From: Candidatus Eiseniibacteriota bacterium
GTDB lineage: Bacteria; Eisenbacteria; RBG-16-71-46; CAIMUX01; VGJL01
Direction: 5' to 3'
Assembly: GCA_041946735.1 (NCBI GenBank)
Contig: JBHGAY010000042.1
Span: 1 to 30,931 of the forward strand
DNA: 30,931 nt
Shown: positions 1 through 30,163 of the stretch, piece by piece
Layout of the letters: every line of letters starts with the position of its first letter
How positions within the stretch are numbered: the first letter of the stretch is position 1
The notes under the pieces: model-generated
What the model was told of the DNA's origin: nothing
What the model saw: only the letters and a program-made list of their open reading frames with translations
The model's database searches: none
Made by a program: the position numbers and the translations under genes

Positions 1-81
1 GCGCCGATCGCCGCACGCCAGATCTCGCCGAGCGGCGTCGAGGACTCGACGAATCGTCGGAGGCCCGGCGCCTCCCTGCGC

Positions 82-87
82 TACGAT
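82..87 (+). promoter_or_regulatory. Putative -10 box (TACGAT) of a leaderless transcript
   Basis: TAnnnT hexamer ends 6 nt before the GTG at 94; no Shine-Dalgarno sequence in between. Confidence 0.55.
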
Positions 88-93
88 TCCCGC

Positions 94-1140
94 GTGAGCG
101 GCGTCCCTCGAGTCTCGATCCTCCTGCCCGTTCGTGACGCGGCGGCGAGTCTGCCCCGCTGCCTGGACTCGCTGCGGGCGCAGACGTTCCCCGATTGGGA
201 ATGCCTCGCCGTGGACGACGGCTCATGCGACGGCACGGCAGAGCTGCTCCGCGAAGCGTCCGCGGCCGATCCTCGCTTTCGGCCGCTCGCCGTCCCCGCG
301 CCCGCCGGGATCGTCGCCGCTCTCGAGATGGCCCGCCTCGCCGCCCGCGCGCCGCTCCTGCTCCGCCAGGATGCCGACGACGCGAGCGATCCGGAGAGAA
401 TCGAACGGCAGGTGCGGGCGATCGACGAGGCGGGTGGCGATCTTGCGCTTCTCGGATGCCGGGTCCGCGTTCCCGGAGCGGTGACCGACGGGATGCGCCG
501 CTACCTCGATTGGCTCGACGCATGCGTCACTCCCGAGGACTGCGCGCGCGAGATCTGGATCGAGAGCCCGCTCGTCCATCCGACCGTTCTCGCGCGCGCC
601 GGCGCGATCGCCGCGGCGGGCGGCTACCGCGATCGACTCTGGCCGGAAGACTACGACCTGTGGCTGCGCGTGCACCGCGCAGGCGGACGCATGGCGAACC
701 TTCCCGACAGGCTCTACGAATGGAACGATCGTCCCGACCGGCTCTCGCGCACCGATCCGCGCTACGCGCCCGAGTCGTTCCTGCGCTGCCGCCTGCACCA
801 CCTGCGGCGCTGGCTCGCGACGCGCGCGGGACCTGATCGTCCCCTCGTCGTGTGGGGAGCCGGGCGGGATGGACGGCGGTTCGTCCGCGAATGGGACCGC
901 GAAGCGTCCGGCGAAGGGCCGCCCGCGCCGCCCGTCGTCGCGTTCGTCGACATCGACCCGGAGAAGGTCGGGCGCTCCCGCTTCGGCCGGCCGGTGCTGG
1001 ACTTCGCCGCCGCGCGCGCCGGCTTTCCCGGCGCCTTCTACCTCGCCGCGGTTGGTGTGGCGGGAGCGCGCGAGCTGATCCGGGAGCTGCTTCGCGAAGC
1101 CGGGATGGTGGAGACGGTCGACTTCGTCTGCGTGCACTGA
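94..1140 (+). CDS. Family 2 glycosyltransferase with C-terminal Rossmann-like domain (QTGAL/B3GNTL1-like)
   Basis: GT-A motifs VSILLPVRD, VDDGS.D, QDADD (DxD) and PEDYDLW; C-terminal VWGAGRDGRR...VVAFVDIDPEK; no signal peptide or TM helix. Confidence 0.88.
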   Translation: MSGVPRVSILLPVRDAAASLPRCLDSLRAQTFPDWECLAVDDGSCDGTAELLREASAADPRFRPLAVPAPAGIVAALEMARLAARAPLLLRQDADDASDPERIERQVRAIDEAGGDLALLGCRVRVPGAVTDGMRRYLDWLDACVTPEDCAREIWIESPLVHPTVLARAGAIAAAGGYRDRLWPEDYDLWLRVHRAGGRMANLPDRLYEWNDRPDRLSRTDPRYAPESFLRCRLHHLRRWLATRAGPDRPLVVWGAGRDGRRFVREWDREASGEGPPAPPVVAFVDIDPEKVGRSRFGRPVLDFAAARAGFPGAFYLAAVGVAGARELIRELLREAGMVETVDFVCVH

Positions 1141-1166
1141 GGAAGCGCGCGGGCTGCGCCCCGCGA

Positions 1167-2174
1167 CTACTTCGACAGCTCGAGCATCCTCTCGATCGGA
1201 ACGAGAGCGCGCGCGGCGATCTCCGGGTCGACGACGATCTCCGGGCGTTCGTCGCGCAGGCAGAGGTAGAGCTTCTCGAGCGTGTTGCGCTTCATGTACG
1301 GGCACTCGTTGCAGGCGCATGCGGTGTCGGGCGGAGCGGGGATCAGCTCCTTCCCGGGCGCGAGCTTTCTCATCTGATGCAGGATCCCCGGCTCGGTCGC
1401 GATGATGAAGCGGCTCGCCGGGCTCTTCACGACGTAGTCGAGGATCGAGGAGGTCGATCCGATGTGGTCCGCCTGGCGCAGGACCGACTCCTCGCACTCG
1501 GGATGCGCCACCACCAGCGCCCCCGGATTGCGGAGCTTCAGCTGCACGATCTTCTTCGCGCTGAAAAGCTCGTGGACTTCGCACGATCCCGGCCAGAGGA
1601 CCATGTCGCGCCCGGTCCGCTTGATGATGTAGCGCCCGAGGTGCTGATCCGGTGCGAAGACGATCTTCCGGTCCGCCGGCACGGAGCGGACGATCTTCTC
1701 CGCGTTCGACGACGTGCAGATCAGGTCCGACATCGCCTTCACTTCGGCCGAGCAGTTGATGTAGCTGATCACGACGTGATCGGGATAGCGGGAGAGGAAC
1801 GCCGCGAAGCGATCCGGAGGACAGCCGTCGGCGAGCGAGCAGCCCGCATCGAGATCCGGGACGACCACCTTCCGGGCGGGATTCAGGATCTTCGCCGTCT
1901 CCGCCATGAAGTGGACGCCTGCGAAGGCGATCATCGAGGCGTCCGTGCGGGCGGCCGCCTGGGCGAGGGCGAGCGAATCGCCGACATGGTCGGCGAGGTC
2001 CTGGATCTCCCCCTCCTGGTAGTAGTGCGCGAGCAGGACCGCGTTCTTCTCCTTGCGGAGTCGCTCGATCTCCTCGTGGAGATCGAGTCGCGGATCGATC
2101 GGCTCGACCCGCGCCGCAGCGGTCCCGATTCCGCGCTCCGCTCGCGCAGGCGCCGTAACCTCAGGTGTGCTCAA
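1167..2174 (-). CDS. nadA: Quinolinate synthase A
   Basis: [58 protein letters not shown] and C.C.ECPYM motifs. Start moved to TTG at 2174, in frame, with GGAGG at 2186-2190; the longer ORF to 2681 is considered an artefact. Confidence 0.95.
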
Positions 2175-2214
2175 CGCTTTTCCATCCTCCTGTTGCGGGC
2201 GCGACCGTCCTCGG

Positions 2215-2223
2215 AGTGTACCA
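2215..2223 (-). promoter_or_regulatory. Extended -10 promoter for nadA (TGG-TACACT)
   Basis: Minus strand reads TGnTACACT about 40 nt upstream of the nadA start. Confidence 0.55.
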
Positions 2224-2264
2224 CGCACGGACCGAACGGCCGGGGGCGACCCCGGGATCCGGTC

Positions 2265-2735
2265 GCAGGAACGGTCGAAGCGGCGCGGGAGATGTCTCGG
2301 CACCACCGTTACGTCCGTCGAAGACGCGCTTGCCATGTCTCGACGACTCCCTCTCGCGTGCGAAAGAGCGATGGCGCATCTCTCGGGGGCCGGCTTTCGC
2401 CTGTCGAAGTCCCCCGGCCGGACCTTCCCAGCTCCTTTCGATGCGCGAAACGGTGACAGGCAGACCGCTGATGGCGGCCTTCGACGCGCGCGATGGCGAC
2501 CGGGCAGGTCTCGACCTCTCCCTCTCGCACGTCGAAGGGGCGTGGCGAGAGACCGGCAGGCGGAGTTGCGCGCGTCGCAGACAGGCACTGCGACATCGGG
2601 GGGCGGGCTTCGACGGGCAAGAGAGGCGCCCCGCGGGCCGGGCGGCCGGCTTTCGCATGCGTGAGACCGGTTCTGCGACATCTCCCGCCGGACTTCGACG
2701 GGCGTGGGACCGCTTCCGCGCCATCGCAGAGCGGC
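2265..2735. repeat. Degenerate ~43-bp-period array (~11 units) with palindromic cores and overall mirror symmetry
   Basis: GTCGAAG at 2274, 2317, 2403, 2531; CTTCGAC at 2479, 2608, 2693; CTTTCG/CTCTCG at 2351, 2394, 2435, 2522, 2650; ATGTCTCG-like at 2292, 2335, 2378, 2506; TGCGACAT at 2589, 2674. Spacings within each series are approximate multiples of 42-43. Confidence 0.7.
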
Positions 2736-2919
2736 GTGGTGCGCTTCGCAGGGACGATGCGAGAGGCCTGACCGTCCTGTTCGGTCGAACGAGAAGTCAC
2801 TGAACGGGTTGCCGGAGCGGTTGCTGCCAAGTCGAATTCGGGCGCCCCGACAGGCCGCGGCATCGTTTTCGCCCCGCGATGCCGGCCGGCCGGGATGGGG
2901 GTCCGCAATCCTGTCGGCA

Positions 2920-2949
2920 TTGAGTTCGGCGCCGGCTCTCCCCTAGATT
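2920..2949 (+). promoter_or_regulatory. Putative sigma70 promoter TTGAGT-N18-TAGATT
   Basis: -35 at 2920-2925 and -10 at 2944-2949, about 160 nt upstream of the ATG at 3109. Confidence 0.4.
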
Positions 2950-3108
2950 CGACTGGCCCGGGTGATACCGGCTCCCGTTACGGGGTCCCGGCCGCGCGAC
3001 GAGCGAAGCGTGGGGATCGAGACCGCCGGGCCCGCGCTTCCGTCAGCGATCGCCGCCTGCTGGTTCCCGGAGCCGGCCGACTGTCGCATCTCGAAAGGAG
3101 GAGCATTC

Positions 3109-4756: not shown

Positions 4757-6892
4757 GTGATCCGGGAATCGATCCGTAGGGACCGCGTCCTCTGGCTCGT
4801 CCTCGCGGCCGCGGCGGCGCTTCGCTTCTGGAGGATCGGCGGGGACCTTCCCTACGTCCTCCACTATGACGAGCCGACGCTCGTCGACAACGCGGTCTGG
4901 ATGATCCAGGGGCGAACGCTCGATCCCCACTTCTTGAACTATCCGACCGGGCTCATCTACCTGCTCGCCCTCCTCTACGGGATCGTCTTGCTCGGAGGCG
5001 TCGCCTTCGGCCGCTTCGACGGAATCGCCGGCGGGATCGCCTGGCTTTCGGCAGGCACGTACCCGCGTCCGGCCGAGGGGGGCGTCCTCTATTTCTATCC
5101 GACGATCGGAGTGCCGGCCCTCTACCTGATCGGGCGCGGCGTGAGCGCGCTCGCGGGCGTCGCGACCGTTGCGCTCGTCTACACGCTCGCGCGCCGCGTC
5201 GCCGGATCGCGCGCGATCGCCCGCCTCGCGGCCGTCGCCCTCGCGCTTTCGCCGCTCGCCGTCGAGAACTCGAGGCTGATCACGACCGATGCGACGGCGA
5301 CCGCGCTCGCGACCGGCTGCCTGCTCGCGATCGTGACGCTCACGGAGCGCGGGACGCGGCGGCGGGACTGGATCGTGGCGGGAGCGCTCGCCGGGCTGGC
5401 GGCGGGGGTGAAGTACAACGCGGGGCTCGTCGCCGTCCCGCTGGCGGGTGTGGCGGTGCGCGACGCGCTGCGGCGGCGGGGACCGGGCGAGGCGGCGGCA
5501 GCCGGGCGCAGGCTCGCCCTCGCGGCTGCGGCCGCGCTGGTCGCGTTCTTGATCCTCACCCCGTATGCGCTGCTCGATGCGGCGCGCTTCACGAAGGACC
5601 TCGGCTACGAGTTCCGGCGCGTCTCCTCGATCACCGCGACGTTCCAGGGAGCCGAAGCGGTCGAGGCGACGCCGATCGAGAAGGTCGCGGAGATCGCGCG
5701 CAACGGCCTCGGCATTCCCGGCATCCTCGCCGCCGTGTGGGGAGCGGTCCTTGCGATCCGTTCGCGCCGCGCCGCCGCCCTCGTGATCGCCGGCTGGGTC
5801 GCCGTCGCGCTGCTGCCGATGCTTCGCTGGCAGAGCCTCTACGCGCGCTACTTGTTGCCGCCGTGGCCGGCGATCCTGCTTCTCGCCTCCTGGGGGACGG
5901 TCGATGCCTCTGCCCGGGCGGCGCGCGCCGCTCGACTCGACCGCTCCGCCGCGGGGCGGGCTGCGTTGCTCGCGGTCGCCGTCGCCGCTTTCCTCCTTCC
6001 CGGGACGATCCGCGCCTCGCGCTACCTCGCCGCTCGAGCCCACCCCGACCCGCGCGTGGTGATGACCCGTTGGATCGGCGAGCGCATCCCGCCGGGCGAG
6101 CCGATCGTGATGGAGCCGGGCGGTCCGTTCCCGGACGCGGAGGAGCATTCGATCCAGCGGGTCGACTTCCTGGGACGGTCGACGCCGGGCGAGTACCGCG
6201 CGCGAGGGATCCGCTGGCTCGTCGGCACGGGACGCGAGAGCCGGATTGCAGGCAAGCCGGGGTTCGGAGAGGTGCTCGCGAACCTCGACAGCCTCCGCGC
6301 CGCCGCGGATCTCGCGTGGTCGCGCGGGCGCTACGCGGTCTACCGCTTGCGCGGCGGCGCCGCCTGGGAGGACTCGGTCTCCGCCGCGCTCGCCGCGCGC
6401 GACTCCACCGCGGCGTGGAACCTTCTCGAGACGGCGCTCCGTTCGGGGAGGACGCTGAGCGCCCAGTCGTGGAAGAGGCTCGCGCTCCTGCGCGCCGCCG
6501 CCGGCTCGAGCGCGGCGGCGCAGGAAGCCTGGCTCGCCGCGGCCCGCCTCGACCCGAAGGACGTCGAGCCGCCGCTCGCCCTCGGCAACCTCGCGCTCGC
6601 TCGCGGCGAATACGCGTCGGCGCTCGAGCGCTTCGAGCAGGCGCGGGCGCTTTCGCCCCGCGATCCGTTGATCCTCCACAACCTCGCGGTCGCGCACCTC
6701 TACATCGCGCAGGCGGAGCGCGCCGCCCGGGATGCGGCCGCGGCCCGCGCGTCGTGGGAGGAGGCGCGCGAGCTGGCCGACCGCGCCGCCACGGTGTCTC
6801 CCGGAGATCCGTCGATGGCCGCCCTGCGCGACCAGGTTCTTCGCATGGGACGCAAATGGGGCTTTCTGCTAGATTCGCCGGTCGATCGGTAG
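4757..6892 (+). CDS. Membrane GT-C (ArnT/PMT/GT39-like) glycosyltransferase with C-terminal TPR repeats
   Basis: HYDEP in the first loop, HFLNYP, TDA and GVKYN motifs, about 10-11 hydrophobic segments, RYLLP; C-terminal TPR-like repeats (AARLDPKDVEPPLALG...ALSPRDPLILHNLA). Confidence 0.85.
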   Translation: MIRESIRRDRVLWLVLAAAAALRFWRIGGDLPYVLHYDEPTLVDNAVWMIQGRTLDPHFLNYPTGLIYLLALLYGIVLLGGVAFGRFDGIAGGIAWLSAGTYPRPAEGGVLYFYPTIGVPALYLIGRGVSALAGVATVALVYTLARRVAGSRAIARLAAVALALSPLAVENSRLITTDATATALATGCLLAIVTLTERGTRRRDWIVAGALAGLAAGVKYNAGLVAVPLAGVAVRDALRRRGPGEAAAAGRRLALAAAAALVAFLILTPYALLDAARFTKDLGYEFRRVSSITATFQGAEAVEATPIEKVAEIARNGLGIPGILAAVWGAVLAIRSRRAAALVIAGWVAVALLPMLRWQSLYARYLLPPWPAILLLASWGTVDASARAARAARLDRSAAGRAALLAVAVAAFLLPGTIRASRYLAARAHPDPRVVMTRWIGERIPPGEPIVMEPGGPFPDAEEHSIQRVDFLGRSTPGEYRARGIRWLVGTGRESRIAGKPGFGEVLANLDSLRAAADLAWSRGRYAVYRLRGGAAWEDSVSAALAARDSTAAWNLLETALRSGRTLSAQSWKRLALLRAAAGSSAAAQEAWLAAARLDPKDVEPPLALGNLALARGEYASALERFEQARALSPRDPLILHNLAVAHLYIAQAERAARDAAAARASWEEARELADRAATVSPGDPSMAALRDQVLRMGRKWGFLLDSPVDR

Positions 6893-6928: not shown

Positions 6929-7858
6929 ATGATCCAGGTCGAGAGCCTGACGAAGAGCTTCGGCGCCTTGCGCGCGGTCGACGCGGTCAGCTTCCGCGTG
7001 CCGCCCGGGATGATCTACGGCCTCCTCGGTCCCAACGGCGCGGGCAAGACGACGACGATCTCGTGCGTCTGCGGCCTGCTTCGCCCCGACGCGGGGACGG
7101 TGAGCATCGGCGGCCACGACATGGCGGGCGATCCGCTCGCCGCGAAGGCGATCCTTGGGGTCGTCCCGCAGGAGACCGCGATCTATCCGACGCTGACCGC
7201 GGCGGAGAACGTCTCGTACTTCGCCGACCTCTACCGGCTCGACTCCGGCGCGAAGCCGGAGCGCGTGCGCGAGGTGCTGACCCAGGTGGGGCTCGAGCCG
7301 GGCTCCAAGCAGCGCAGCAAGACCTTCTCGGGCGGGATGAAGCGACGGCTGAACCTCGCGATCGGCTTCGTGCACCGCCCGCGCGCCCTGCTCCTCGACG
7401 AGCCGACGGTCGGGATCGATCCGCAGGCGCGGATCCACGTGCTCGACGTCGTTCGCGCGCTGCGCGCCGAGGGGACCGCGATCCTCTACACGACGCACTA
7501 TCTCGAGGAGGCGGAGGAGCTGTGCGACCGGATCGCCGTCATGGATCACGGGCGGATCCTGGCGGAAGGCACGATCCCCGAGCTGCGCCGGCTTCTCGGC
7601 GAGGGGACGATTCTCACGCTGCGCGGCCGCTTCACCGCCGAGCAGGTCCGGCCCCTGCTCGACGGCCGTGACGGCATGCGCGTCCTCTCGCTCGAGGACG
7701 GCGACGCGAAGATCTCCGTGAGCGGAGAGCAGGACGCCGGCGCCGCGCTCTCCGCCGAGGTGATGCGCCGCGGCGTCCCGGTGTCGGAGATCTCGATGCG
7801 CGAGCCGAGCCTCCAGGATCTGTTCCTCAAGCTGACCGGGCGCGAGCTCCGGGACTGA
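6929..7858 (+). CDS. ABC transporter ATP-binding protein (DrrA/LnrL-like)
   Basis: Walker A GPNGAGKTT, signature FSGGMKRR, Walker B LLLDEPT, H-loop TTH; C-terminal PSLQDLFLKLTGRELRD; SD GGAGG. Confidence 0.95.
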   Translation: MIQVESLTKSFGALRAVDAVSFRVPPGMIYGLLGPNGAGKTTTISCVCGLLRPDAGTVSIGGHDMAGDPLAAKAILGVVPQETAIYPTLTAAENVSYFADLYRLDSGAKPERVREVLTQVGLEPGSKQRSKTFSGGMKRRLNLAIGFVHRPRALLLDEPTVGIDPQARIHVLDVVRALRAEGTAILYTTHYLEEAEELCDRIAVMDHGRILAEGTIPELRRLLGEGTILTLRGRFTAEQVRPLLDGRDGMRVLSLEDGDAKISVSGEQDAGAALSAEVMRRGVPVSEISMREPSLQDLFLKLTGRELRD

Positions 7859-7883
7859 CGGGACCGCGGCGGAGGCGACGATC

Positions 7884-9194
7884 ATGCGCTCTCTCCGGCT
7901 CGCCCTCGCGAAGGACCTCCGGCGCTGGATTCGCTCCCCGCTGCCGATCCTGGTCTTCCTGCTCTTCCCCGTCGTCTTCGCGCTCCTGATCGGCTTCACC
8001 TTTGGAGGCGGGGGCGGAGGTGGTGGCGGCGGAGGCGGAAGCGATGGCGACGGCGGCGGCTCGGGCGACAAGCTCGCCCCGATCCGGATCGCGATCGTCG
8101 ATCACGACGGCGGATTCCTCGCGCGCCTCTTCCGCGGCGCGTTCGAGCAGGGGCAGGGACCGATCCGCTTCGACTCGGCGATTCTCGAAGAGGACGAAGC
8201 GCGCGCTCGCATCGAGGACGGGAAGCTCTCCGCGGTGGTCACGATCCCGGCCGGCTTCGAGGACAGCCTGCTCGCCGGCCGCTCGACGCGCGTCGAGGTC
8301 GTCAAGAACCCGGCGGAGTCGATCTATCCCTCGATCGTCGAGGAGTACGTGAAGACGATGGCGCAGGTGCTCGGCTCCGCGACCCGGATCCTGAAGGAGC
8401 CGATCGGCGGCATCCGGCAGGCGACGCGCGAGAAGCGCGCGCCGAGCGAGCAGACGGTCGCGGAGTTGTCGATCCTGGCGAACCGGAAGATGCGCGGGGT
8501 GGGACGCTACGCGTTTCCGCCCGCGATCCGGATCGTGAAGCCGGCGGAGGCGGAGAAGACCGGCGAGGACTCCGCGTCCGCTTCCGCGCCGATGCGGATC
8601 GCCGCGTTCGTGCTTCCCGGCATGGCGAGCTTCTCGCTTCTCACCCTCGCGCTCGCGATGATGGCGGACCTGAAGCGCGAGGAGAGCAACCGCACGCTGG
8701 CTCGCCAGCTCACCGCTCCCGTCTCCGCCTGGGGGCCGGTCGGCGGGAAGGTGCTCGCGACCGCGCTCCTCGCGCTCGCCTGCATCGTCGTCCTGATCCT
8801 GGTCGCGTCGATCGGCGGCGGGATCCGTGTCGCGGTCGCGCCATTCCTCCTCCTCTCCTGCGCGTTGGCGCTCGCCGCGACCGGGTTCGCCACGCTCGCG
8901 CATTCGCTGTCGGGTGGAGAGAGGGCAGGAGCGGTGATCGGCGGCGTGGTCGTCATGGCGATGTCGATGGTCGGCGGGAGCTGGGTGCCTCTCGACTCGC
9001 TGCCCGCGTTCCTCCGCGGGATCTCTCCGTTCACGCTGAACTACTGGGCGAACGATGGGTATCGCAGGATCCTGTTCGACTCGTCGGGGATCGGCGCGGT
9101 CGCGCCGCACGTGGGGGTCCTGGCCGGCGCCGGCGTCGTCCTGCTGGCGGCCGCCGTGGTGCGGCTGCGCCAGCGCCTCGGGCAGGGCGCGTGA
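7884..9194 (+). CDS. ABC-2 type permease with large extracytoplasmic domain
   Basis: N-terminal TM, IAIVDHD, TIPAGF, five further TMs, SPFTLNYW; SD GGAGG; 12-Gly tract. Confidence 0.9.
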   Translation: MRSLRLALAKDLRRWIRSPLPILVFLLFPVVFALLIGFTFGGGGGGGGGGGGSDGDGGGSGDKLAPIRIAIVDHDGGFLARLFRGAFEQGQGPIRFDSAILEEDEARARIEDGKLSAVVTIPAGFEDSLLAGRSTRVEVVKNPAESIYPSIVEEYVKTMAQVLGSATRILKEPIGGIRQATREKRAPSEQTVAELSILANRKMRGVGRYAFPPAIRIVKPAEAEKTGEDSASASAPMRIAAFVLPGMASFSLLTLALAMMADLKREESNRTLARQLTAPVSAWGPVGGKVLATALLALACIVVLILVASIGGGIRVAVAPFLLLSCALALAATGFATLAHSLSGGERAGAVIGGVVVMAMSMVGGSWVPLDSLPAFLRGISPFTLNYWANDGYRRILFDSSGIGAVAPHVGVLAGAGVVLLAAAVVRLRQRLGQGA

Positions 9195-10414
9195 CGATGG
9201 GCCCGCTGCTCTCGATCGCGCGCACCGACCTCCGGCTCACGCTGAAGGAGCGCTCCACGCTCGTCTGGATGTTCGGGATGCCGATCCTCTTCGTCTTCTT
9301 CTTCGGGACGGTCTTCGGCGGCAGCTCCGGTCCGCCTCCCGCCACACGCCTCGGCATCTCCGATCGCGATGGCTCGTTCCTCTCGGGAATGTTCGTGGAG
9401 CACCTCCGCTCGGAGGGACTCGATCTGGACCTGCTGCCGGCGGGGCGCGCCGACAGCGTGGCGGCCCGTCGCGCGGCGCAGAAGCCGGCGGAGGGCGACC
9501 CGGCGCGGGTGCTCACGATCCCGGCCGGCTTCGCGGACAGCCTTTCCTCGGGACGCCGGGCGCCGGTCGAGATGGCGAGCGCGAGCGGCGCGGGCGGCGC
9601 GAGCGACGAGCGGGACATGATGGCCCAGGTGCATCTCTATCGTGCGATCGCACGGACGCTCGCGATCCTCGCCGAGATCGACACCGCCGCGGCGCCAGGG
9701 ATGGTTCGGCCGGAGGATCCCGCGTTCCAGACGCGCTATCGCGAGCTTGCCGCGCTGCCCGATCCGATCGCGACCGTCGTGACGACGGCGGGAAAGGGAC
9801 GGGCGGTGCCGAGCGGCTTCGCGCAAAGCGCGCCGGCGATGCTGGTCCTCTTCATGCTGATGAACACGGTCATCTATGGCGCGGCCTTCCTCACGCAGGA
9901 GAAGCAGAACCGATGCCTGCGCCGCGTCGAGTCGGCGCCGGTCACGCGCGGGCAGCTCCTGGGCGGAAAGCTCCTCGGCCGGCTCGGGATCGCGATGCTC
10001 CAGGCGGTCGTGCTGCTCGCCGCCGGGCGGCTGCTCTTCGGCGTCTACTGGGGGAACAGCGCCCTCGGCTTGGCCGTCCTGCTCGTCTGTCTCGGTCTCG
10101 CGTGCGCCTCGCTCGGGCTCCTGCTTGGATCGATCCTGCGGAGCGAGGAGCAAGCTTCGGCGCTCGGCTGGATCGTCCCGCTCTTCCTCGGCGCGATCGG
10201 CGGGACCTGGTGGCCGCTCGAGATCGTCCCGTCCTGGATGCGCGCCGCGGGACACGTCTCGCCGGCCGCCTGGGCGATGGACGGACTGCACGGCCTGATC
10301 TCCTTCGGCCGCGGCGCGGCCGCCGTCACCGTTCCCGCGCTCGTGCTGCTGGGCTTCGCCGCCGCGTTCTTCGCGGCGGGGGCGCGGTTGCTGAGGACGG
10401 AAGCGGAGGGCTGA
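9191..10414 (+). CDS. ABC-2 type permease (second subunit)
   Basis: GTGA overlap with the upstream stop (alternative ATG at 9197); LGISDRD, TIPAGF, EK...LRR...P, GGTWWPLE...SP..WA motifs. Confidence 0.9.
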   Translation: MTMGPLLSIARTDLRLTLKERSTLVWMFGMPILFVFFFGTVFGGSSGPPPATRLGISDRDGSFLSGMFVEHLRSEGLDLDLLPAGRADSVAARRAAQKPAEGDPARVLTIPAGFADSLSSGRRAPVEMASASGAGGASDERDMMAQVHLYRAIARTLAILAEIDTAAAPGMVRPEDPAFQTRYRELAALPDPIATVVTTAGKGRAVPSGFAQSAPAMLVLFMLMNTVIYGAAFLTQEKQNRCLRRVESAPVTRGQLLGGKLLGRLGIAMLQAVVLLAAGRLLFGVYWGNSALGLAVLLVCLGLACASLGLLLGSILRSEEQASALGWIVPLFLGAIGGTWWPLEIVPSWMRAAGHVSPAAWAMDGLHGLISFGRGAAAVTVPALVLLGFAAAFFAAGARLLRTEAEG

Positions 10415-10485
10415 TCCGGTATCGCGGCCGCGGAAGACCGAAGCGGGGAGCTGGCGGCACATCGCGGCCGGTAGGCTGGCAAGCA

Positions 10486-10528
10486 GAAGCGTGCGAGGAG
10501 AGGGACGCTGCCTCTTCCCGCACGCTTC
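10486..10528. terminator. Long stem-loop between convergent operons
   Basis: GAAGCGTGCG (10486-10495) / CGCACGCTTC (10519-10528) perfect 10 bp, extended inward by GGAGAGG/CCTCTTCC. Confidence 0.55.
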
Positions 10529-10573
10529 GTGGTTCGGGCCGCGCGGAACGCGCGCGACAGAGAACCGCGGCCG

Positions 10574-12418
10574 CTACTTCGCGAGCACCGCCGCCCGCCG
10601 GTAGACCACGTCCCCCGCCTGCAGCGAGTAGAAGTAGGTCCCCGCCGGGACGTTGCGTCCCGCCTCGCTCGTTCCGTCCCAGACGATCTCGTGGTGGCCG
10701 GCTCCGACGCGGCCGTCGATCAGCCGCCGCACGAGCCGTCCCTGCGCGTCGTAGACGGAGAGCTGCACGTCATCCTCGTACTTCAGCTCGAAGGAGAAGG
10801 TCGTCGCGGAGCGGAACGGGTTCGGCCGGTTCTGCTGCAGGCGCGTCCCCAGTCCCTGGCCGGACTCGGCGACGTCGCTCGAAGGCGTCGTCACGAGGAA
10901 CGAGTAGGAGGCGGCCGGCTCGGTGCGCGGCATCCCCTCGCGGCGCCCGGTCAGATCGACCGCGTGGATGTAGTAGTCGACCCTCGTCCCGTTCGGCTGC
11001 GGCGGGATCTCGTAGCGGTACCAGTCGGCCGGCTGATCGGGGCTCAGCGCCGAGGCGGTGAACGCCGGCGGCGGCGTCCCGTCCGGATAGGCGCGCCAGT
11101 AGACGAGCAGCGAGTCGGAGAGGAGCCCCGCCTCGCTCCGGTCGTCGATGAACGCGCGCACCGGGATCGCGGCATAGCGATCCCAGGAGACGATCGGGGT
11201 GTGGCCGACGCGTAGCATCTGGAAGTCCGGGATCCCCATCACGCGGCAGTGGATCGCGTCGTCGGAGAGCCAGCTTCCGGTGAAGCCGATCACCTCGTAG
11301 CCCGGCATCGCGTCGCGATAGACCTGCAGGGCGTTCGCGTCGTGCGGGTTCAGGTTGAAGGTCGGCACGAGCACCTTGTCGTTCAGGATGAGCGAGTTCG
11401 TGTAGGAGGCGACGTCCGAACCGCCGATGCTCGCGCAGTAGACGCGCACGACGCGATAGTTCCGGCCGGTCGAGCTTTGCAGCGAGGCGAGGAGCGTGGC
11501 GTCCTGCTCGCACCGCTGATAGTCCGCGTGGCTTTGCGCGACCTGCTTCACCACGATCGTCTCCTCGTCGAGCATTTTCGCCCAGCAGTCGATGTGGTGG
11601 ATCCCGCCGGCGGAGACGTCGGGGACGACGTTGTAGCTGACGAGGCCGTAGTAGTCGTGCATCAGGTCGAAGATCTGCTGGTGGGTCATCCCGCCGTTCT
11701 CGTCCCACACCAGAGTCGTCTGGAACGAGAAGCCATAGCCGTCCGTCATGTAGTTGCCGCCGGTGTTCCAGAGGCTGTGCGTGTGGACCGGCAGGCCCCA
11801 GTGATCGCCGCAGACGATCGGGATCAGGTTGTCGTTCGGACGGTACGGGCGATTGTAGTAGTGGTCGATGATCGCGATCTCCCCGTTGCCGTCGTAGACG
11901 AACCAGGGGCCGTAATCGCGCGTCCAGTAGCTGTCGGAGTTCGCGAGGATCCAGTCGACTGCGTCCGGATCGACTCCGTTGGACTGGAAGGCGTTCCGGG
12001 CCGTGTTGTAGGAGGACTGCGAGACGACGCAGGAGATCTGCACGTGCTCCGCCATTTCCCGGATCAGCGAGTACGGGATCCCGAGCGGATAGCGGATCAG
12101 CGCCTTGATCATCGGCTCGTACTCGGCGCAGTTGCGGACGGGGGCGAGGGGCGGCGGATCGTCCCGGAGATTCTGCTGGGGCGGCACGCCGCCGTAGGCG
12201 TCCCGCTCTTCCGGCGTCTCCCATTGCGGCAGCTGAGGCGCGAGGTGGTCGGTGTCCCACTGCCATCCCGGGCCGGGGACGATGACCGGGGTCTCGGCCG
12301 GAGGGCTGCCGGAGGCGAGGACGAAAGCCGGAGCAAGGAGCGAGGCGAAGATCGGAGCGGCGAGAAGCGAGAGGCCGAGCGAAAGGATCCGGAGACGCCG
12401 GAGGACGTTGCGAAGCAT
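10574..12418 (-). CDS. Secreted agmatine/peptidylarginine deiminase family protein with C-terminal FlgD-Ig/T9SS-like domain
   Basis: Signal peptide; AEYEP, WTRDYGPW, GGN, HIDCW, SYTNSLILN..VLVP and AIHC (catalytic Cys) motifs; tail LQQNRPNPF...VYD.QGRLVR.L...WDG....G..VPAGTYFY.L. Start ATG 12418 with GGAGG. Confidence 0.9.
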   Translation of the reverse strand: MLRNVLRRLRILSLGLSLLAAPIFASLLAPAFVLASGSPPAETPVIVPGPGWQWDTDHLAPQLPQWETPEERDAYGGVPPQQNLRDDPPPLAPVRNCAEYEPMIKALIRYPLGIPYSLIREMAEHVQISCVVSQSSYNTARNAFQSNGVDPDAVDWILANSDSYWTRDYGPWFVYDGNGEIAIIDHYYNRPYRPNDNLIPIVCGDHWGLPVHTHSLWNTGGNYMTDGYGFSFQTTLVWDENGGMTHQQIFDLMHDYYGLVSYNVVPDVSAGGIHHIDCWAKMLDEETIVVKQVAQSHADYQRCEQDATLLASLQSSTGRNYRVVRVYCASIGGSDVASYTNSLILNDKVLVPTFNLNPHDANALQVYRDAMPGYEVIGFTGSWLSDDAIHCRVMGIPDFQMLRVGHTPIVSWDRYAAIPVRAFIDDRSEAGLLSDSLLVYWRAYPDGTPPPAFTASALSPDQPADWYRYEIPPQPNGTRVDYYIHAVDLTGRREGMPRTEPAASYSFLVTTPSSDVAESGQGLGTRLQQNRPNPFRSATTFSFELKYEDDVQLSVYDAQGRLVRRLIDGRVGAGHHEIVWDGTSEAGRNVPAGTYFYSLQAGDVVYRRAAVLAK

Positions 12419-12561
12419 GAGCTTTCCTCCACGGATGTTGTCGGGCTCGCCCCCTGCGTTCGGGGCGAGCCGCTTCAGGCGATGCTCTCTCTCCGGCGAT
12501 CGCGAGCGACGCGCGGACGACGCGCGGACGACGCGCCCGCCGATCGCACGGAAGCGTTTCA

Positions 12562-12570
12562 ATTCTAGCA
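12562..12570 (-). promoter_or_regulatory. Extended -10 promoter (TGC-TAGAAT) for the deiminase gene
   Basis: TGnTAGAAT on the minus strand about 145 nt upstream of ATG 12418. Confidence 0.6.
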
Positions 12571-12588: not shown

Positions 12589-12638
12589 TCAGGGAGACAG
12601 GGAGTCAGGGAGTCAGGGGGGCCCAGGAGATCAGGGAG
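12589..12638. repeat. 8-bp tandem repeat (TCAGGGAG) x4 plus one copy at the kinase stop codon
   Basis: Units at 12589, 12597 (ACAGGGAG), 12605, 12613 (TCAGGGGG) and 12631. Confidence 0.75.
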
Positions 12639-14967
12639 CCAACGCGCGCCCCCCCGGCCGGGAGCCGGCGCGATGGGCCTTCTCGAGGAGGGAGTGGATC
12701 TTCCCGACGAGCGACCGGACGTCGATCGGCTTGTGCACGAGGCCGTCCGCGCCCAGGGCGTGGACCTCCGCCTCGCGCTCCGGCCGCGCGTCTCCGGTGA
12801 CGACGAGGACGCAGGCGAGCCGCAGGGCCCGGATCGCAGGCAGGCGGCGGAGAACCTCGGCGCCGTCCATGTCAGGGAGCATCAGATCGAGGAGAAGCAC
12901 GTCGGGGTCCCGGTGCATCAGCGCCTGGATCGCCTCGTTGCCGCCGGCCGCGGCGAGGACCTTTGCTCCGTACTGCTCGAGGAGGAGAGCGGTCGAGCGG
13001 CGCGTCGTATCGTGATCCTCGACGAGCAGGATGCGAGCCCCGGCGAGGCAGCGGTCGTCCGAGGACGATGCGGTGCCGAGCGAGTCCGTTTCCGCGTCTT
13101 GCTCCTGCTCCGGCAGACGCTCCTGCGACCCGGCCACCGTCGCCTCGGGAAGATGCAACCGGAAGCAGCTTCCCTTCCCAGGCTCGCTCTCGACGGACAT
13201 CCGCGCGCCGATCGCCTCGACCAGCCGCTTGCAGATCGCGAGCCCGAGGCCGGTCCCCTTGCTTCGGTCCCGTTCCGGATTCCGGAGCTGCAGGAACTCG
13301 TCGAAGATCGCGTCGATCTCGCGTGCCGGGATCCCGATCCCGGTGTCGGCGACGTCGATGCGGACTCCCCCGTCCCCGTCCCGGTCCCGTGCCACCGTCA
13401 CCTGCACCGACCCCGCATCGGTGAACTTCAACGCATTGCCGATCAAGTTGGTGACCACGCGGGCGAGCTTCAACCTGTCGGTGCGCAGGCGCAGGCCTTC
13501 CGTCTCTGCCTCGAACGCCAGCGAGAGCGCCAGGCCCTTCTGCCTGGCGGTAGGGAGGAACTGCCGGATCTCGGCATCGAGGACCGCTCGCAACGAGAAG
13601 TCGCTCACGTTCAGCTCCTGGCTGCCGGAGTCGAACCGCGTGAGGTCGAGGACGTCGGAGACGAGCTCGACCATCGATCGCGAAGCGTTCTGGAGGTCAG
13701 CCGCGAGCTGCTGGATCTCGGGCGATGCGGGATTGCTCTCCGAGAGCCGGCGGATCAGCTCGGAGATCAACGTGATCGCGTTCGCCGGGGTGCGGATGTC
13801 GTGGGAGACGGCGGCAAGGAAGTGCGTCTTTCGCCGCGATCCTTCCTCGGCGGCCTTGCGGCGCTCCGCGATTTCCTCGTGGAGCTGGAGCATCTCGAGG
13901 ATCAGGGCACATTGCGCCGACAGCCACTCGATCGCCCGGAAGTCCTCCTCGGTGAATTGGTGGGGCGTCCTGCGATAGACCTCGAACACGCCCGCCGCGC
14001 GCCCCTGGATGCGATACGGCGTTGCCAGGATCGCCCGGATCGGAGCCGCTCCGTCGGGAGTCGGAAGCTCAATGTCGGGACGCAGCGCGAGATCGAACAA
14101 CGCGGCGGTCCGCCCGCGCTCGAGGACGATCGAGGCGAAGGAGCGATCGTAGTCCCAAGACCGCTGCGCGATGGGATGGGAGCCGCTCCATGTATGCACG
14201 AAGATCTTGTCGCCGGAACGCATCGTGACGCCCGCGGCGCCGTCCGGCCCTCCGAGCATCTTGCCCGCGACCCGGCAGATCTCCTCGATCGCCTGCTGCG
14301 GCGACGGCAGGGTCCGGGCACAGCGCAGGAGGACCTGCAGGATCTCCTCGCGCCGGGCGAGATCGGCGTTCGCCGCCACCATCTGCTCGGATCGGATGCG
14401 CAGCTGCTCCGCCTGGGACTCCATCTCCTCGGCCTGCGCCTGCAGCTCGGTATTCTGGCGCGTGATCTCCTCGGTCTGCGCCTGCAGCTCCTCGTTTTGC
14501 CGCCGGATCTCCTCCTCCCGCGCCGAGAGCTCTTCGTTCGCTTCGGCCAGCTCCGCGTTGGATCGCGCGAGCGAGGCGTTCGACGATGCGAGTCGCTCGC
14601 CCCTCGCCGCGGACCGGTCACGGTAGAGGTTGACCATCTCGATGATCACCGCCATCAGGACCAGGTTGGCGATTTGTAGAGCGGCAAAGGAGACCGCCTC
14701 GGAGCCGCGCTCGCCGCCGCGGGTGTACATCTGAATCCCCTTCGCCACGATCATCCCGAGGAACACGACCGCCGTCGATCGATGGAGGACCCGGTGGCGG
14801 TGCCAGAGTCCGAGCGTCAGCAGAAGCCCGTAGCCGATCGGCACGTACTGGTGCCCGTAGAGGACGAAGCGAAGGACGGCCATGAGAATGGCGCCGATCG
14901 CCGTCACGACGATGGCGAGCTCGAGCGACGGGCGCGCCCGGACGCGGACCGCCTCTACTGCCGTCAT
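12631..14967 (-). CDS. Membrane hybrid histidine kinase (TM - coiled coil - GAF - HisKA - HATPase - REC)
   Basis: H-box SHDIRTP, N-box NLIGNALKFT, G1 DTGIGI, G2 GTGLGL, REC ILLVED...LLDLMLP...KP; ATG 14967 overlaps the cheR stop (ATGA) and has GGAGG upstream. Confidence 0.92.
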   Translation of the reverse strand: MTAVEAVRVRARPSLELAIVVTAIGAILMAVLRFVLYGHQYVPIGYGLLLTLGLWHRHRVLHRSTAVVFLGMIVAKGIQMYTRGGERGSEAVSFAALQIANLVLMAVIIEMVNLYRDRSAARGERLASSNASLARSNAELAEANEELSAREEEIRRQNEELQAQTEEITRQNTELQAQAEEMESQAEQLRIRSEQMVAANADLARREEILQVLLRCARTLPSPQQAIEEICRVAGKMLGGPDGAAGVTMRSGDKIFVHTWSGSHPIAQRSWDYDRSFASIVLERGRTAALFDLALRPDIELPTPDGAAPIRAILATPYRIQGRAAGVFEVYRRTPHQFTEEDFRAIEWLSAQCALILEMLQLHEEIAERRKAAEEGSRRKTHFLAAVSHDIRTPANAITLISELIRRLSESNPASPEIQQLAADLQNASRSMVELVSDVLDLTRFDSGSQELNVSDFSLRAVLDAEIRQFLPTARQKGLALSLAFEAETEGLRLRTDRLKLARVVTNLIGNALKFTDAGSVQVTVARDRDGDGGVRIDVADTGIGIPAREIDAIFDEFLQLRNPERDRSKGTGLGLAICKRLVEAIGARMSVESEPGKGSCFRLHLPEATVAGSQERLPEQEQDAETDSLGTASSSDDRCLAGARILLVEDHDTTRRSTALLLEQYGAKVLAAAGGNEAIQALMHRDPDVLLLDLMLPDMDGAEVLRRLPAIRALRLACVLVVTGDARPEREAEVHALGADGLVHKPIDVRSLVGKIHSLLEKAHRAGSRPGGRALAP

Positions 14968-15932
14968 GCGTCGCCTCCCGCTTCGAGCTGGAAGATCGAG
15001 GGAGACAGCGGCCGCAGCCGGCATCCTCCCGGCCTCTCGGCGCTCCCGGTCACCAGGAGCCCGCCTGGGCGCAGAGCCGACACGAGGCGCGTCCAGAGCG
15101 ACTGCGCGGCGTCGACTTCGAGATACATCGCCAGGTTGCGGCAGAGGATGATGTCCCACGGACCCGCCGGAGCGGCCCGCAGGACGTCGGAAACCTTCCA
15201 TCGGATCGATGAAGCGATCGGCGCGGCGATCCGGAAGCCATCGCGCTCGGGGAGTAGATGCCGCCGGATCCGCTCGGTGTCGTGCGGGCGGAACGACGAG
15301 GCGAGGTAGCGCGCCGCTCGCGCCCGCTCGATCGCCTCCGGCCTGCAGTCGGTGCCGAGCAGGAAGGAGCCGGGCAGCCGGCCGGCCTCGTAGAGGAGCA
15401 TCGCGGTCGAGTAGAGCTCCGAGCCATCGGAGCAGCCAGCGCTCCAGACGCGCAGAGGGCCACGAGGCAGCCGCTCCGCGACTGCGCGCTCGAGATTCTC
15501 GAACAGTGGCGGATCGCGGAAGAAGCCGGTGACTCCGAGCAGCAGCGTCTGGATCGCGGGGTCCAGCCGCGATGGTTCCCTGTTCAGCTTCTCGGACGCC
15601 TCCTCGATCGTCGTCGCGCCGATCTGACGGAGGCAGGCGCGGGCGCGCCGCAGGAGGGGCTCCGCACGATAGGCAGTCCCATCGAGCCCCGCCCGGTCGA
15701 GGAGGCCGCGCAAGAAGGAGAGAGCCGCGGGATCCGCAGGAGGGCCCGAGTCACGCCGATCCGAGGCAACCGGGGAAGAGAAACTGGCGCGAGGCGGGGC
15801 CGGGCGCATGGTCGGAGCGGTTGCGGTGCGGGCCGCAGGCCGCCGCGCGCCGGAAAACATGACGTGGCGATACCGGTCGGACTCCGGCGGAACCGGAGTG
15901 GGATCCTGGAGATCGCGGTCCTGATTCTCCAT
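14964..15932 (-). CDS. cheR: CheR-family protein-glutamate O-methyltransferase
   Basis: GVTGFFRD, RVWSAGCSDGSELYS, LGTD, DIILCRNLAMY and L.PGGLL..G.AE motifs; exact start uncertain. Confidence 0.88.
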   Translation of the reverse strand: MENQDRDLQDPTPVPPESDRYRHVMFSGARRPAARTATAPTMRPAPPRASFSSPVASDRRDSGPPADPAALSFLRGLLDRAGLDGTAYRAEPLLRRARACLRQIGATTIEEASEKLNREPSRLDPAIQTLLLGVTGFFRDPPLFENLERAVAERLPRGPLRVWSAGCSDGSELYSTAMLLYEAGRLPGSFLLGTDCRPEAIERARAARYLASSFRPHDTERIRRHLLPERDGFRIAAPIASSIRWKVSDVLRAAPAGPWDIILCRNLAMYLEVDAAQSLWTRLVSALRPGGLLVTGSAERPGGCRLRPLSPSIFQLEAGGDA

Positions 15933-16141: not shown

Positions 16142-17833
16142 TCAGTGCTGCTCGGCCGCCTTCTCGAGGCGCAGGCGGACGCTCGTCGCGATCGCGGTCG
16201 CTCTCTCGTTGGCGGCCGCGAGCCGCTCGCGCGCCTCCTCCATCGTCTTGGCCGCCCAGGAGCGGTCGGTGATTCCGGGAAGGTTGATCATCACGTTGTC
16301 GTACGCGCCTTCCGCGCACGCCCGGGCCGCGAGCGCGGAGACCGCGGCGTCGCTCGCGGAGTTCGGGTTGCCGCGCTCGGCGACCACGCCGGCGAGATCG
16401 AGGACGGCGGAGACGCGGGACAGCACGTCGAACGGCACCTGGATTGCGAGCCGGGAGGCGCGCTGCATCTCTTCCTCCCGCTTCGCCTGCTCCTCGGGCG
16501 TCTTCTTCGGCAGCCGGTTCGCCGCCATGACGGCGTCGAAGGCGTTGCTGTCGCGGTCGATCTCCTCGAGGTAGAGGTCCTTCAGGCGCTGGCCTTCGAC
16601 CGCGATCCGGTTCATCTCCTCGCGCGCGTCCTCGAAGCCCTTCTTGCCGATCGTGAGGTTCGCGACCATCGCGGCCAGAGCGGCGGCGAGGGAGCCGCAG
16701 AGCGCGGCGACGCTGCCACCTCCGGGAGCCGGCGAGTCGGTCGACAGCTCGTCGACCAGGCCGCGCACCGTTCGGTCGACGAGGAACTTCTGCCCCTCCC
16801 GCACCCGGTACTCGATGATCTTCTTCGCCGGATCGAACGGCGAGATCTCGTCGAGGCCGAGAGAGCGGACCGCGATGTGGACCAACTCCGAGTCCGGGAC
16901 GCCGGTCGACTTCCCCTGCCGGGCCAGGTAGTAGCGCCCGGCCATGCGGACGGCCTCGAGCGGGATCAGTCCCACCAGCTCGCTGCCCGTCACGCGAAGC
17001 CCGAGCCGGCGGCCCACCTCGACGCACGCCTCGAACGCCTCGTGGACGGGGGTCGTGTGGAAGTCGAGCAGGTTGATGGAGACCTGAGCGCGGCCGTACT
17101 CCTCGATGGTCCATCCGACGGCGCGCACCGCCTTGAGCATTCCCTCCTTGCGGACCGGGTTGCCTTCCGCGTCGAGGATCGTGCGGCCCTGGGAATCCTT
17201 CGCCAGGCGTCCGGTCTCGCGGATCTCGAGGGCGATCTCGTTCGCGAGCCTGCGGTCGCGGGTGTTCAGGTTGACGTTGTACGCGATCAGGAACTCGCGG
17301 GCACCGATCACCGTCGCGCCGGCCCGCTCGTGAAACTTCGCGGGCCCGAAGTCCGGCTTCCATTCCGGATCGGCGAGCTTTGCGGAAAGCCCCTCGTATT
17401 CTCCAGCGCGAATGTTCGCCAGGCTTCGCCTCTCGGGGCGGCTGGCTGCGTTCTCGTAGAGGTAGACGGGGATCGATAGTTCGCGGCCGACGCGCTCTCC
17501 GAGCGTGCGGGCCAAGGCCGCACATTCCTCCATGGTGACGCCGCTGACCGGAACGAACGGACAGACGTCGGTGGCTCCCATCCGAGGGTGCGCCCCCTTG
17601 TGCTGACGCATGTCGATGCGCTCCGAGGCGCAACGGATTGCGCGAAAGGCCGCTTCGGCCACGGCCTCGGGGGGACCGACGAACGTGACGACCGTGCGGT
17701 TGGTGTCGGCGCCGGGATCGACGTCGAGCAGGCGCACCCCTTCGGTCCCCTCGATCTCACGCGCGATCGCATCGAGGACCGTACGATCCCTACCCTCGCT
17801 GAAGTTCGGTACGCACTCGACGAGCCCCGCCAT
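16142..17833 (-). CDS. ftcD: Bifunctional glutamate formimidoyltransferase / formiminotetrahydrofolate cyclodeaminase
   Basis: VECVPNFSEGR, HPRMGATDVCPFVP, GAR.FLIAYN.N, QVS.N and SELVGL.P; C-terminal SPAPGGGSVAA and GNPN..SD; SD AAGGAGG. Confidence 0.95.
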   Translation of the reverse strand: MAGLVECVPNFSEGRDRTVLDAIAREIEGTEGVRLLDVDPGADTNRTVVTFVGPPEAVAEAAFRAIRCASERIDMRQHKGAHPRMGATDVCPFVPVSGVTMEECAALARTLGERVGRELSIPVYLYENAASRPERRSLANIRAGEYEGLSAKLADPEWKPDFGPAKFHERAGATVIGAREFLIAYNVNLNTRDRRLANEIALEIRETGRLAKDSQGRTILDAEGNPVRKEGMLKAVRAVGWTIEEYGRAQVSINLLDFHTTPVHEAFEACVEVGRRLGLRVTGSELVGLIPLEAVRMAGRYYLARQGKSTGVPDSELVHIAVRSLGLDEISPFDPAKKIIEYRVREGQKFLVDRTVRGLVDELSTDSPAPGGGSVAALCGSLAAALAAMVANLTIGKKGFEDAREEMNRIAVEGQRLKDLYLEEIDRDSNAFDAVMAANRLPKKTPEEQAKREEEMQRASRLAIQVPFDVLSRVSAVLDLAGVVAERGNPNSASDAAVSALAARACAEGAYDNVMINLPGITDRSWAAKTMEEARERLAAANERATAIATSVRLRLEKAAEQH

Positions 17834-26424: not shown

Positions 26425-26718
26425 CGAAACCGTTGCCTCCTGCGACGAAAGATGCGAGATGCGGTGCCGGCGAGCGAGAAGGATCCCTCGTTCGGCAGGA
26501 ACGCCCTTGCGTAAAGACCACCGAGTCAGCCTTAGAATCCCATGAGATCCTTTTCGAGCAAAGCTGCGGCTGGGCGCTTCCACATAAAACATGGGTCATG
26601 AAGATCGTGTGGGGCGAACATTCGACGGAAACGGATCGGCGATACCTCGAACGAAAGCGGACGTGGCCGCGCGTTTCGCAAGCGGCAATTCGGTCCCGAG
26701 GAAGATTCGAGAGACGGC

Positions 26719-29076: not shown

Positions 29077-29107
29077 CGGGGGCAGAGCGTCCTCCTCGGT
29101 CTCGGTC

Positions 29108-30046: not shown

Positions 30047-30061
30047 GCCCTCTACGCCCGC

Positions 30062-30163
30062 CTCATGCCTGCTTCACGCTTCGCCGCTTCACGCTTGCTT
30101 CACACCTTCCCGCTTCACGCTTGCTTCACTCTCTTCTGCTTCACGCCGGCTCATGCCTGCTTC
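30062..30163. repeat. GCTTCAC x6 repeat cluster bounded by a 14-bp direct repeat of the moxR 3' end
   Basis: GCTTCAC at 30071, 30086, 30097, 30112, 30123 and 30138; CTCATGCCTGCTTC at 30062 and 30150. Confidence 0.8.

Follow-up and report, generated by a model that had tools for sequence, protein, structure and literature searches.

In bacteria, queuosine (Q) is known to be decorated by GluQ-RS (YadB), which targets the cyclopentenediol of Q34. Glycosylated queuosines, namely galactosyl-queuosine (galQ) and mannosyl-queuosine (manQ), are reported from 'many animals' in PMC12518689, and in the literature that we searched they are described only from animals, where their purpose is debated. PMC11755703 equates B3GNTL1 with the queuosine-tRNA galactosyltransferase QTGAL. 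For this enzyme, a preprint gives UDP-galactose as the donor, an SN2-type reaction and a β-glycoside as the product (bioRxiv 10.64898/2026.06.28.735034). Here we analysed a window of 30,931 nucleotides from a Candidatus Eiseniibacteriota bacterium (GenBank assembly GCA_041946735.1). The window is the whole stretch of DNA under study and opens contig C37 of the host assembly (4.9 Mb, 72 contigs), covering its initial 30.9 kb. It carries a gene at 94..1140 on the forward strand, whose product the initial annotation had considered a possible full-length bacterial homologue of QTGAL that may modify queuosine-containing tRNA (Q-tRNA) or another nucleic acid rather than a surface glycan. We tentatively favour, with a probability of roughly 0.4, that the protein is a UDP-sugar-dependent inverting transferase acting on Q-tRNA and the bacterial counterpart of eukaryotic B3GNTL1/QTGAL. 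Its fold, domain make-up, motif conservation and distribution and the Q pathway of its host result from the analysis, whereas the donor, the acceptor and the chemistry are proposed from them.

A GT-A domain fused to a Rossmann-like domain

The open reading frame (ORF) at 94..1140 on the forward strand is a real gene. It starts with GTG and, with the stop codon included in these coordinates, encodes a product of 348 amino acids (aa). The GTG at position 94 matches the N-termini of 48 aligned homologues, which begin 5–7 residues ahead of the same VSILLP strand. Upstream of the GTG lie 93 nt of contig, through which the reading frame is open back to base 1. No Shine-Dalgarno-like run was found 5–12 nt upstream of the GTG, the sole GGAGG being located 31 nt upstream, and no sigma-70-like promoter site was found in window bases 1–3000. 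The 348-aa protein has no transmembrane (TM)-like stretch (the highest Kyte-Doolittle mean over 19 residues is 1.43). With no signal peptide or membrane span and a model that forms a compact two-domain globule, it is soluble, as is QTGAL.

An AlphaFold2 (AF2) model of the whole protein, built on a 49-sequence alignment, reached a predicted local distance difference test (pLDDT) score of 96.4 and a predicted template modelling (pTM) score of 0.93. The model, the ORF list, the homologues and the alignment of start sites agree on a two-domain glycosyltransferase. Residues 1–224 (94..765, + strand) form a GT-A catalytic domain of glycosyltransferase family 2 (GT2), which was assigned by structure matches and by the Pfam GT2 family PF00535 (residues 8–127, E = 8e-23). 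A long interdomain linker helix, seen by DSSP on the AF2 model at about residues 226–244 (766..825, +), connects it to a small Rossmann-like domain at residues 245–348 (826..1137, +). The earlier description of a soluble GT2 with an unusual C-terminal domain was thus borne out by the PF00535 match, the hydropathy and the model.

When the whole model was compared with known structures using VIA-align, K4CP (2z86) matched with a Z of 24.3 (rmsd 2.6, 225 aligned positions) and SpsA (1h7l), TarS (5tze) and heparosan synthase with a Z of 23.5, while Foldseek matched GT2 structures at E values of about 1e-13 to 1e-14. The best structures, TarS, TarP, RmlT, SpsA and K4CP, speak for an ordinary cell-envelope GT2 of the teichoic-acid, lipopolysaccharide (LPS) or exopolysaccharide (EPS) type, or a polyprenyl-phosphate sugar synthase, which would feed a nearby GT-C enzyme of the PMT_2/TPR type. 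Weak NCBIfam matches to EpsE, TuaG and ArnC-like families point in the same direction. However, these matches cover only the generic GT-A domain: the best sub-threshold surface-glycan equivalog, EpsE, scored 72.7 bits against a cut-off of 450, and all 20 listed NCBIfam families (EpsE, TuaG, EpsD, PgaC, WcaA, ArnC etc.) stayed far under their cut-offs. No LPS or EPS equivalog cut-off was reached, so the clustering with such enzymes that had been named as a possible counter-argument was not seen. Moreover, the protein has neither a TM segment nor an amphipathic membrane anchor. Taken with the gene context described below, we consider an envelope function unlikely.

The C-terminal third of the window protein matched no curated Pfam family. 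From a separate model and from structure and profile matches, it was assigned to the CoA-binding/Rex/PglD_N/WbaP type of Rossmann-like domains. Folded alone, it reached a pLDDT of 94.8. VIA-align matched it to the nucleotide-binding domain of WbaP (8t53, Z 11.6), the N-terminal domain of the UDP-QuiNAc 4-dehydrogenase 3nkl (11.5), the CA_C2185 protein 2g6t (11.2), the CoA-binding domains of ATP-citrate lyase (10.1) and citryl-CoA synthetase (9.8), a PglD-like acetyltransferase (9.5) and Rex 5zz5 (9.4), and Foldseek found Rex/RSP at an E value of 1.6e-4. A profile of 36 family C-terminal domains hit Rex (E = 1.4e-8), 3nkl (3.4e-6) and VioB (5.7e-6) among the PDB sequences. At E ≤ 1, PF02629 (CoA_binding) matched 33 of these 36 family members and not the window's own domain, for which no Pfam family was found at this threshold.

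These similarities lead to the main rival explanation, a cytoplasmic glycosyltransferase whose acceptor is not RNA but, for example, a small metabolite, a protein or a sugar linked to a nucleotide. The Rossmann-like domain would then bind NAD(H), CoA or a UDP-sugar as a free nucleotide, serving as a Rex-like regulator or a PglD-type acceptor handle. Two properties of the domain favour this: its closest relatives are Rex, 3nkl, WbaP 8t53, VioB/PglD_N and CoA-binding domains, and neither the glycine loop nor the acidic residue that follows the second strand has been lost, which matches genuine dinucleotide binders. The remaining points on either side are given below; we regard a non-RNA acceptor as quite possible, though short of probable.

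Conservation was counted in the 49-sequence family alignment, which includes the window protein and contains 31 invariant columns, a sign of family-specific conservation outside the donor site. The DADD motif (D93–D96; 370..381, +), the DxD of GT-A enzymes, has D93, D95 and D96 in 48 sequences each and A94 in 46, and by analogy is probably the metal/nucleotide-sugar site. In the RYxxW block (residues 136–140), Y137 is present in 48 of the 49 sequences and W140 in all of them. The ESPLVHP block (562..582, +) has E157, P159, H162 and P163 in 49/49 each; this family-specific pattern, which was used to find related loci, is a putative acceptor-side motif. The WPEDYDLWLR block (residues 183–192; 640..669, +), with invariant columns at E185, D186, Y187 and D188, appears to lie where inverting GT2 enzymes carry their 'ED' catalytic-base motif and may have this catalytic role. 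In the model, the glycine-rich loop W254-G-A-G-x-x-G260 (853..873, +) lies at the β1–αA turn of the Rossmann-like domain, and its W254, G255, G257 and G260 are found in 49/49 and A256 in 47/49. After the second strand of the same domain follows the D-I-D-P-x-K block (949..966, +), part of a conserved FxDIDPxK stretch (residues 284–291), with P289 in 49/49 and D288 and K291 in 47/49 each; what is known of Rossmann folds suggests a role in ribose/phosphate binding. E340 and D343 near the C-terminus also belong to the conserved blocks.

The initial annotation had compared a series of motifs with the human sequence. On the window side all of them were found in the same order: LLGCRVR (119–125), RYLDWLD (136–142), TPE (146–148), PED inside WPEDYD (184–186), VWGAGRDGRR (253–262), VVAFVDIDPEK (281–291), PVLDFAAAR (300–308) and ETVDF (340–344). 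Most of them coincide with conserved blocks and include the fully invariant W140, W254, G255, G257, G260 and P289. Within the bacterial family, similarity is not limited to the GT-A N-terminus. The combination of a soluble inverting GT-A domain, strongly conserved acceptor-side blocks and a rigidly packed domain of the nucleotide-binding type suggests one conserved intracellular acceptor rather than a strain-variable surface glycan.

A link to a particular acceptor came from the ESM-Atlas protein-feature search, an alignment-free language-model search for look-alikes over 256 features. Without a filter, all matches listed among the 30 nearest were bacterial GT2 clusters (score 0.99, 217–232 features). 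When clusters with accessory GT2 Pfam families were skipped, the best named cluster was 'putative UDP-GlcNAc:betaGal beta-1,3-N-acetylglucosaminyltransferase-l...' (score 0.98, 214/256 features). This cluster is 100% eukaryotic, with Bacillariophyta as the commonest group, and has 55 members and a representative of 511 aa. It shares almost as many features with the query as the protein's own bacterial clusters do. Given this B3GNTL1-like look-alike, queuosine-34 of tRNA is the best single acceptor candidate. The look-alike also argues against a non-RNA acceptor, as the nearest named non-bacterial look-alike is B3GNTL1-like and its animal member acts on tRNA. Ranked behind the eukaryotic cluster were one from Bacillota (409 aa; GT2 with C2185-like_N/CoA_binding/PglD_N; score 0.96, 172 features), which may represent a second lineage of the same architecture, and a viral GT2 cluster (0.94, 163 features).

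Distribution and inheritance of the family

A word-indexed homologue search returned 1209 proteins at E ≤ 1e-3. With the fragment of the window itself set aside, the best 120 of these are bacterial or metagenomic, mostly full length with 330–370 aa, and share 45–67% identity with the query. In addition, an exhaustive HMMER search with residues 119–348 was made against representatives of 50%-identity clusters. It matched 2747 of them at E ≤ 1e-3, of which 916 reached E ≤ 1e-10 and 225 reached E ≤ 1e-30. A scan of one genome per GTDB species gave at least 598 confirmed relatives. The best 80 of these include Gemmatimonadota, Chloroflexota (mostly Anaerolineae), Acidobacteriota, Eisenbacteria, Latescibacterota, Actinomycetota, Thermodesulfobacteriota (among them the cultured Citrifermentans bremense R1), Myxococcota, Planctomycetota, Verrucomicrobiota, Pseudomonadota and Armatimonadota. 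The family is large, bacterial, present in at least 12 phyla and usually single-copy. No real fused forms were found in the homologue searches, including those for longer proteins (>609 aa, or >403 aa when residues 119–348 were used). Among the candidates, P0121, P0164 and P0166 seem to be gene calls broken by frameshifts in DNA of high GC content, and P0232 and P0268 have spurious N-terminal extensions.

In a maximum-likelihood tree of 81 rows, the phylum label changed 14 times, compared to a minimum of 11 and a mean of 42.7 after shuffling. The window protein branches with Candidatus Eisenbacteria (SH-aLRT 98). Since the tree follows the phyla, inheritance is mostly vertical. Among the host's relatives, with the host counted, 35 of 41 genomes contain a full-length match (26 of the 30 of high quality), and all but one of these 35 carriers have a single copy, so that the gene is near-core in its order. 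This is unlike strain-variable surface-glycan genes and is a further point against an envelope GT2. A partial second copy (query residues 204–347) was observed in an Anaerolineales metagenome-assembled genome (MAG; G409), at 10330–10740 of locus L006, 1.3 kb downstream of the full gene; the same MAG is also the sole carrier in which no match to tgt was found.

Gene context and queuosine genes

Downstream of the gene, the window contains a convergent nadA and then a PMT_2/TPR GT-C gene, an ABC-2 transporter and unrelated genes. In three of three relatives from the same family, it lies between a divergent 2-oxoacid:ferredoxin oxidoreductase (POR) gene and the convergent nadA, which makes it a single-gene unit. 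The same three share the gene order GT, nadA, PMT_2, ABC. We considered the nadA adjacency as a functional link and rejected it, because it is conserved only within the host's own family. The PMT_2/TPR gene (4757..6892, +), 3.6 kb downstream of the glycosyltransferase gene, encodes a 711-aa membrane protein with a PMT_2/PMT domain (GT-C, ArnT-like) and C-terminal TPR repeats, and is followed by genes for an ABC ATPase and two ABC-2 permeases (6929–10414).

The presence of this PMT_2/TPR gene and the order kept in the three relatives would suit a role in the envelope. However, tblastn with the window's PMT_2 gave no hit in the vicinity of the gene at 80 loci from other lineages, and the flanking genes are nadA, POR, uvrA and gyrA. 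The earlier statement that the gene is not part of a polysaccharide cluster holds, its neighbours being nadA and POR, with the qualification that the GT-C gene lies downstream. Vertical inheritance, single-gene units and the lack of an envelope context together point away from a strain-variable surface-glycan enzyme.

The neighbourhood was surveyed at 81 sites, comprising the best 80 related loci and the window, with our own ORF calling and clustering. Across phyla, neither a conserved operon partner nor a polysaccharide cluster was found in these sites. The absence of a conserved metabolic partner, with neighbours that vary between phyla, speaks against a non-RNA acceptor as well. The commonest same-strand neighbours were uvrA-like genes (22/81 sites) and gyrA (21/81), which, like PALP, HAD and thioredoxin genes, are part of a Gemmatimonadota-type synteny, and the sites outside this synteny have mixed housekeeping neighbours. 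A location between uvrA-like genes and gyrA, along with the viral GT2 cluster of the Atlas search at 0.94, could indicate that another nucleic acid is glycosylated, for instance DNA bases, rRNA or a different tRNA nucleoside. Yet the uvrA/gyrA synteny comes essentially from one lineage and so counts as one event. Moreover, the phage or viral homologues at which the Atlas cluster hinted were not found at full length: none of the 21 matching GenBank phage records covers 80% of the query, and IMG/VR gave one weak locus with 23% identity over residues 6–239 only. Glycosylation of another nucleic acid is therefore very unlikely in our estimate.

The host possesses genes for queuosine synthesis. In a genome profile search, tgt, queA and queG each scored above their cut-offs, and on contig C4 (15840–17959) queA and tgt are direct neighbours in the same orientation. 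The open frames around these two matches (460 and 776 aa) far exceed the genes, as is usual in high-GC DNA. By tgt, queA and queG, the organism contains Q-tRNA, the substrate that a QTGAL-like enzyme would need. QueH had no match in the host genome, and no GluQ-RS match exceeded the TIGR03838 cut-off. Among distinct carriers of the family, with the host counted, tgt was present in 68 of 69. These carriers were from three samples (5/5; 49/50, of which 47 were over the cut-off; and 14/14 in a 301-genome phylum sample around genome G004), and the check covered the genomes of 55 of the 80 related loci. A corresponding test was tried where tgt is patchy, in the phylum sample centred on the Actinomycetes MAG G001, in which tgt exceeded the cut-off in 218 of 401 genomes (the unpublished genome G323 counted). 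As G001 at the centre of the sample was the only genome with a full-length family member, this test had no power and was dropped.

Several observations weigh against a Q-tRNA acceptor, and some of them also favour a non-RNA one. Co-occurrence with tgt, which had been proposed as a check, does not refute the idea, as host genomes do have tgt, and barely supports it. In the sample around G004, tgt has a background of 257 in 301 genomes, so that 14 tgt-positive carriers out of 14 would occur by chance with a probability of about 0.1. Furthermore, tgt was found in all 41 relatives of the host, including the six that do not have the gene, and G409 carries the gene with no tgt match. Since tgt is near-universal in these lineages, its co-occurrence does not discriminate between the readings and lends almost no positive support. 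The neighbourhood with Q genes that had also been suggested was not seen: in tblastn with the host genes, tgt was found within 8 kb at one of the 80 related loci (L040) and not in the window, and queA at none of the 80. The lack of a conserved link to Q genes is in line with a non-RNA acceptor. So is the near-neutral charge of the protein, with a pI of 5.9 and a family median of 7.7; as the protein is not basic, we rejected charge as a hint of RNA binding. In addition, the ligands of the proteins closest to the C-terminal domain are NAD(H), CoA or, in nucleotide-sugars, the nucleotide part, and not RNA.

The kinship to B3GNTL1 belongs to this balance too. The eukaryotic B3GNTL1-like Atlas cluster is its sole tool-derived link and counts as a lead, and full-length homology depends on this alignment-free search and on the human motifs quoted in the initial annotation. 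No eukaryotic B3GNTL1 was found among the near-length homologues, among those longer than 609 aa or among the proteins longer than 403 aa matched by residues 119–348, all of which were bacterial or unnamed metagenomic sequences. The best 150 of the 916 HMMER representatives (down to E = 3.5e-34) likewise contained none, nor did the names of the 20 cluster representatives that were looked up. A PDB sequence search gave no QTGAL chain, and neither the Foldseek pdb search nor the wide VIA search contained a solved QTGAL structure. A literature search combining B3GNTL1/QTGAL with bacterial, horizontal-transfer or GT2 terms yielded no bacterial homologues and no bacterial glycosyl-Q, the 2023 Cell paper that identified QTGAL lying outside this search. 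Thus, of the proposed kinship the resemblance to the eukaryotic cluster stands, and an alignment to a eukaryotic sequence was not obtained. Similarly, for the choice of Q-tRNA over a surface glycan, the absence of a surface-glycan context was confirmed, whereas the positive evidence for Q-tRNA is weak.

Other genes of the window were also inspected. At 10574–12562 (−), a Porphyromonas-type peptidyl-arginine/agmatine deiminase domain is fused to a FlgD Ig-like domain, and in the relative L088 a DUF362 protein encoded close to the glycosyltransferase gene has the same FlgD_ig tail. A complete three-domain formiminotransferase-cyclodeaminase (FTCD_N, FTCD, FTCD_C), whose architecture is more familiar from animals, is encoded at 16142–17833 (−). 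Hybrid histidine kinases are located at 12631–15201 and 23692–26592, and mfd at 19972–23505. Finally, an aerotolerance-type cluster of BatA, DUF58 and MoxR (AAA_3) genes at 26719–30930 (−) runs past the window end.

Proposed reaction and comparison with known enzymes

According to our preferred interpretation, glycosylation of Q-tRNA, the enzyme would be a cytoplasmic, metal-dependent, inverting GT-A (GT2) enzyme fused to a Rex/CoA-binding-like Rossmann domain. The DADD motif and a divalent cation would hold the UDP-hexose. The invariant pair E185/D186 would activate the acceptor hydroxyl for an SN2 attack that yields a β-glycoside. The nucleotide-containing acceptor may be held by the RYxxW and ESPxxHP blocks and by the C-terminal domain with its glycine loop. 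The likeliest acceptor would be the cyclopentenediol of queuosine-34 in tRNA, which would be converted to hexosyl-queuosine.

A broader claim would be that bacteria of at least 12 phyla, Desulfuromonadales among them, glycosylate their own queuosine with a QTGAL orthologue, that glycosylated Q is no animal invention and that the animal enzyme descends from the bacterial family; we hold this to be quite possible, though short of probable. If it is true, a further bacterial hypermodification of Q would exist besides glutamyl-Q, and a genetically tractable system would be at hand to study the role of the sugar on Q in decoding or in the stability of tRNA. A possible evolutionary origin of animal QTGAL would emerge as well. 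Whatever the acceptor, these proteins constitute a widespread, conserved and uncharacterised family of GT2-Rossmann fusions.

Compared to QTGAL/B3GNTL1, the window protein is likewise a soluble GT2 of similar size that has a GT-A domain with a DxD motif, and its inverting GT-A domain fits the SN2 β-galactosylation reported for QTGAL. Unlike the animal enzyme, it belongs to a bacterial host that makes queuosine itself. With K4CP (2z86), SpsA (1h7l), TarS (5tze), TarP (6h1j) and RmlT (8bz4) it shares the GT-A fold and the DxD (Z 22–24). However, identity to these enzymes is only about 13–23%, and they have neither a Rex-like C-terminal domain nor the RYxxW, ESPxxHP and WPEDYDLWLR blocks. Their substrates are wall polymers or polysaccharides, and their genes are part of glycan clusters, unlike the window gene. 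Rex, CoA_binding (PF02629), PglD_N and WbaP have the same small Rossmann-like fold and glycine loop (Z 9–12), whereas in the window protein this domain is fused behind a GT-A domain. If our proposal is true, GluQ-RS and the window protein would share the cyclopentenediol of Q34 as their target, but the fold of GluQ-RS is unrelated and its chemistry, aminoacyl transfer, is different.

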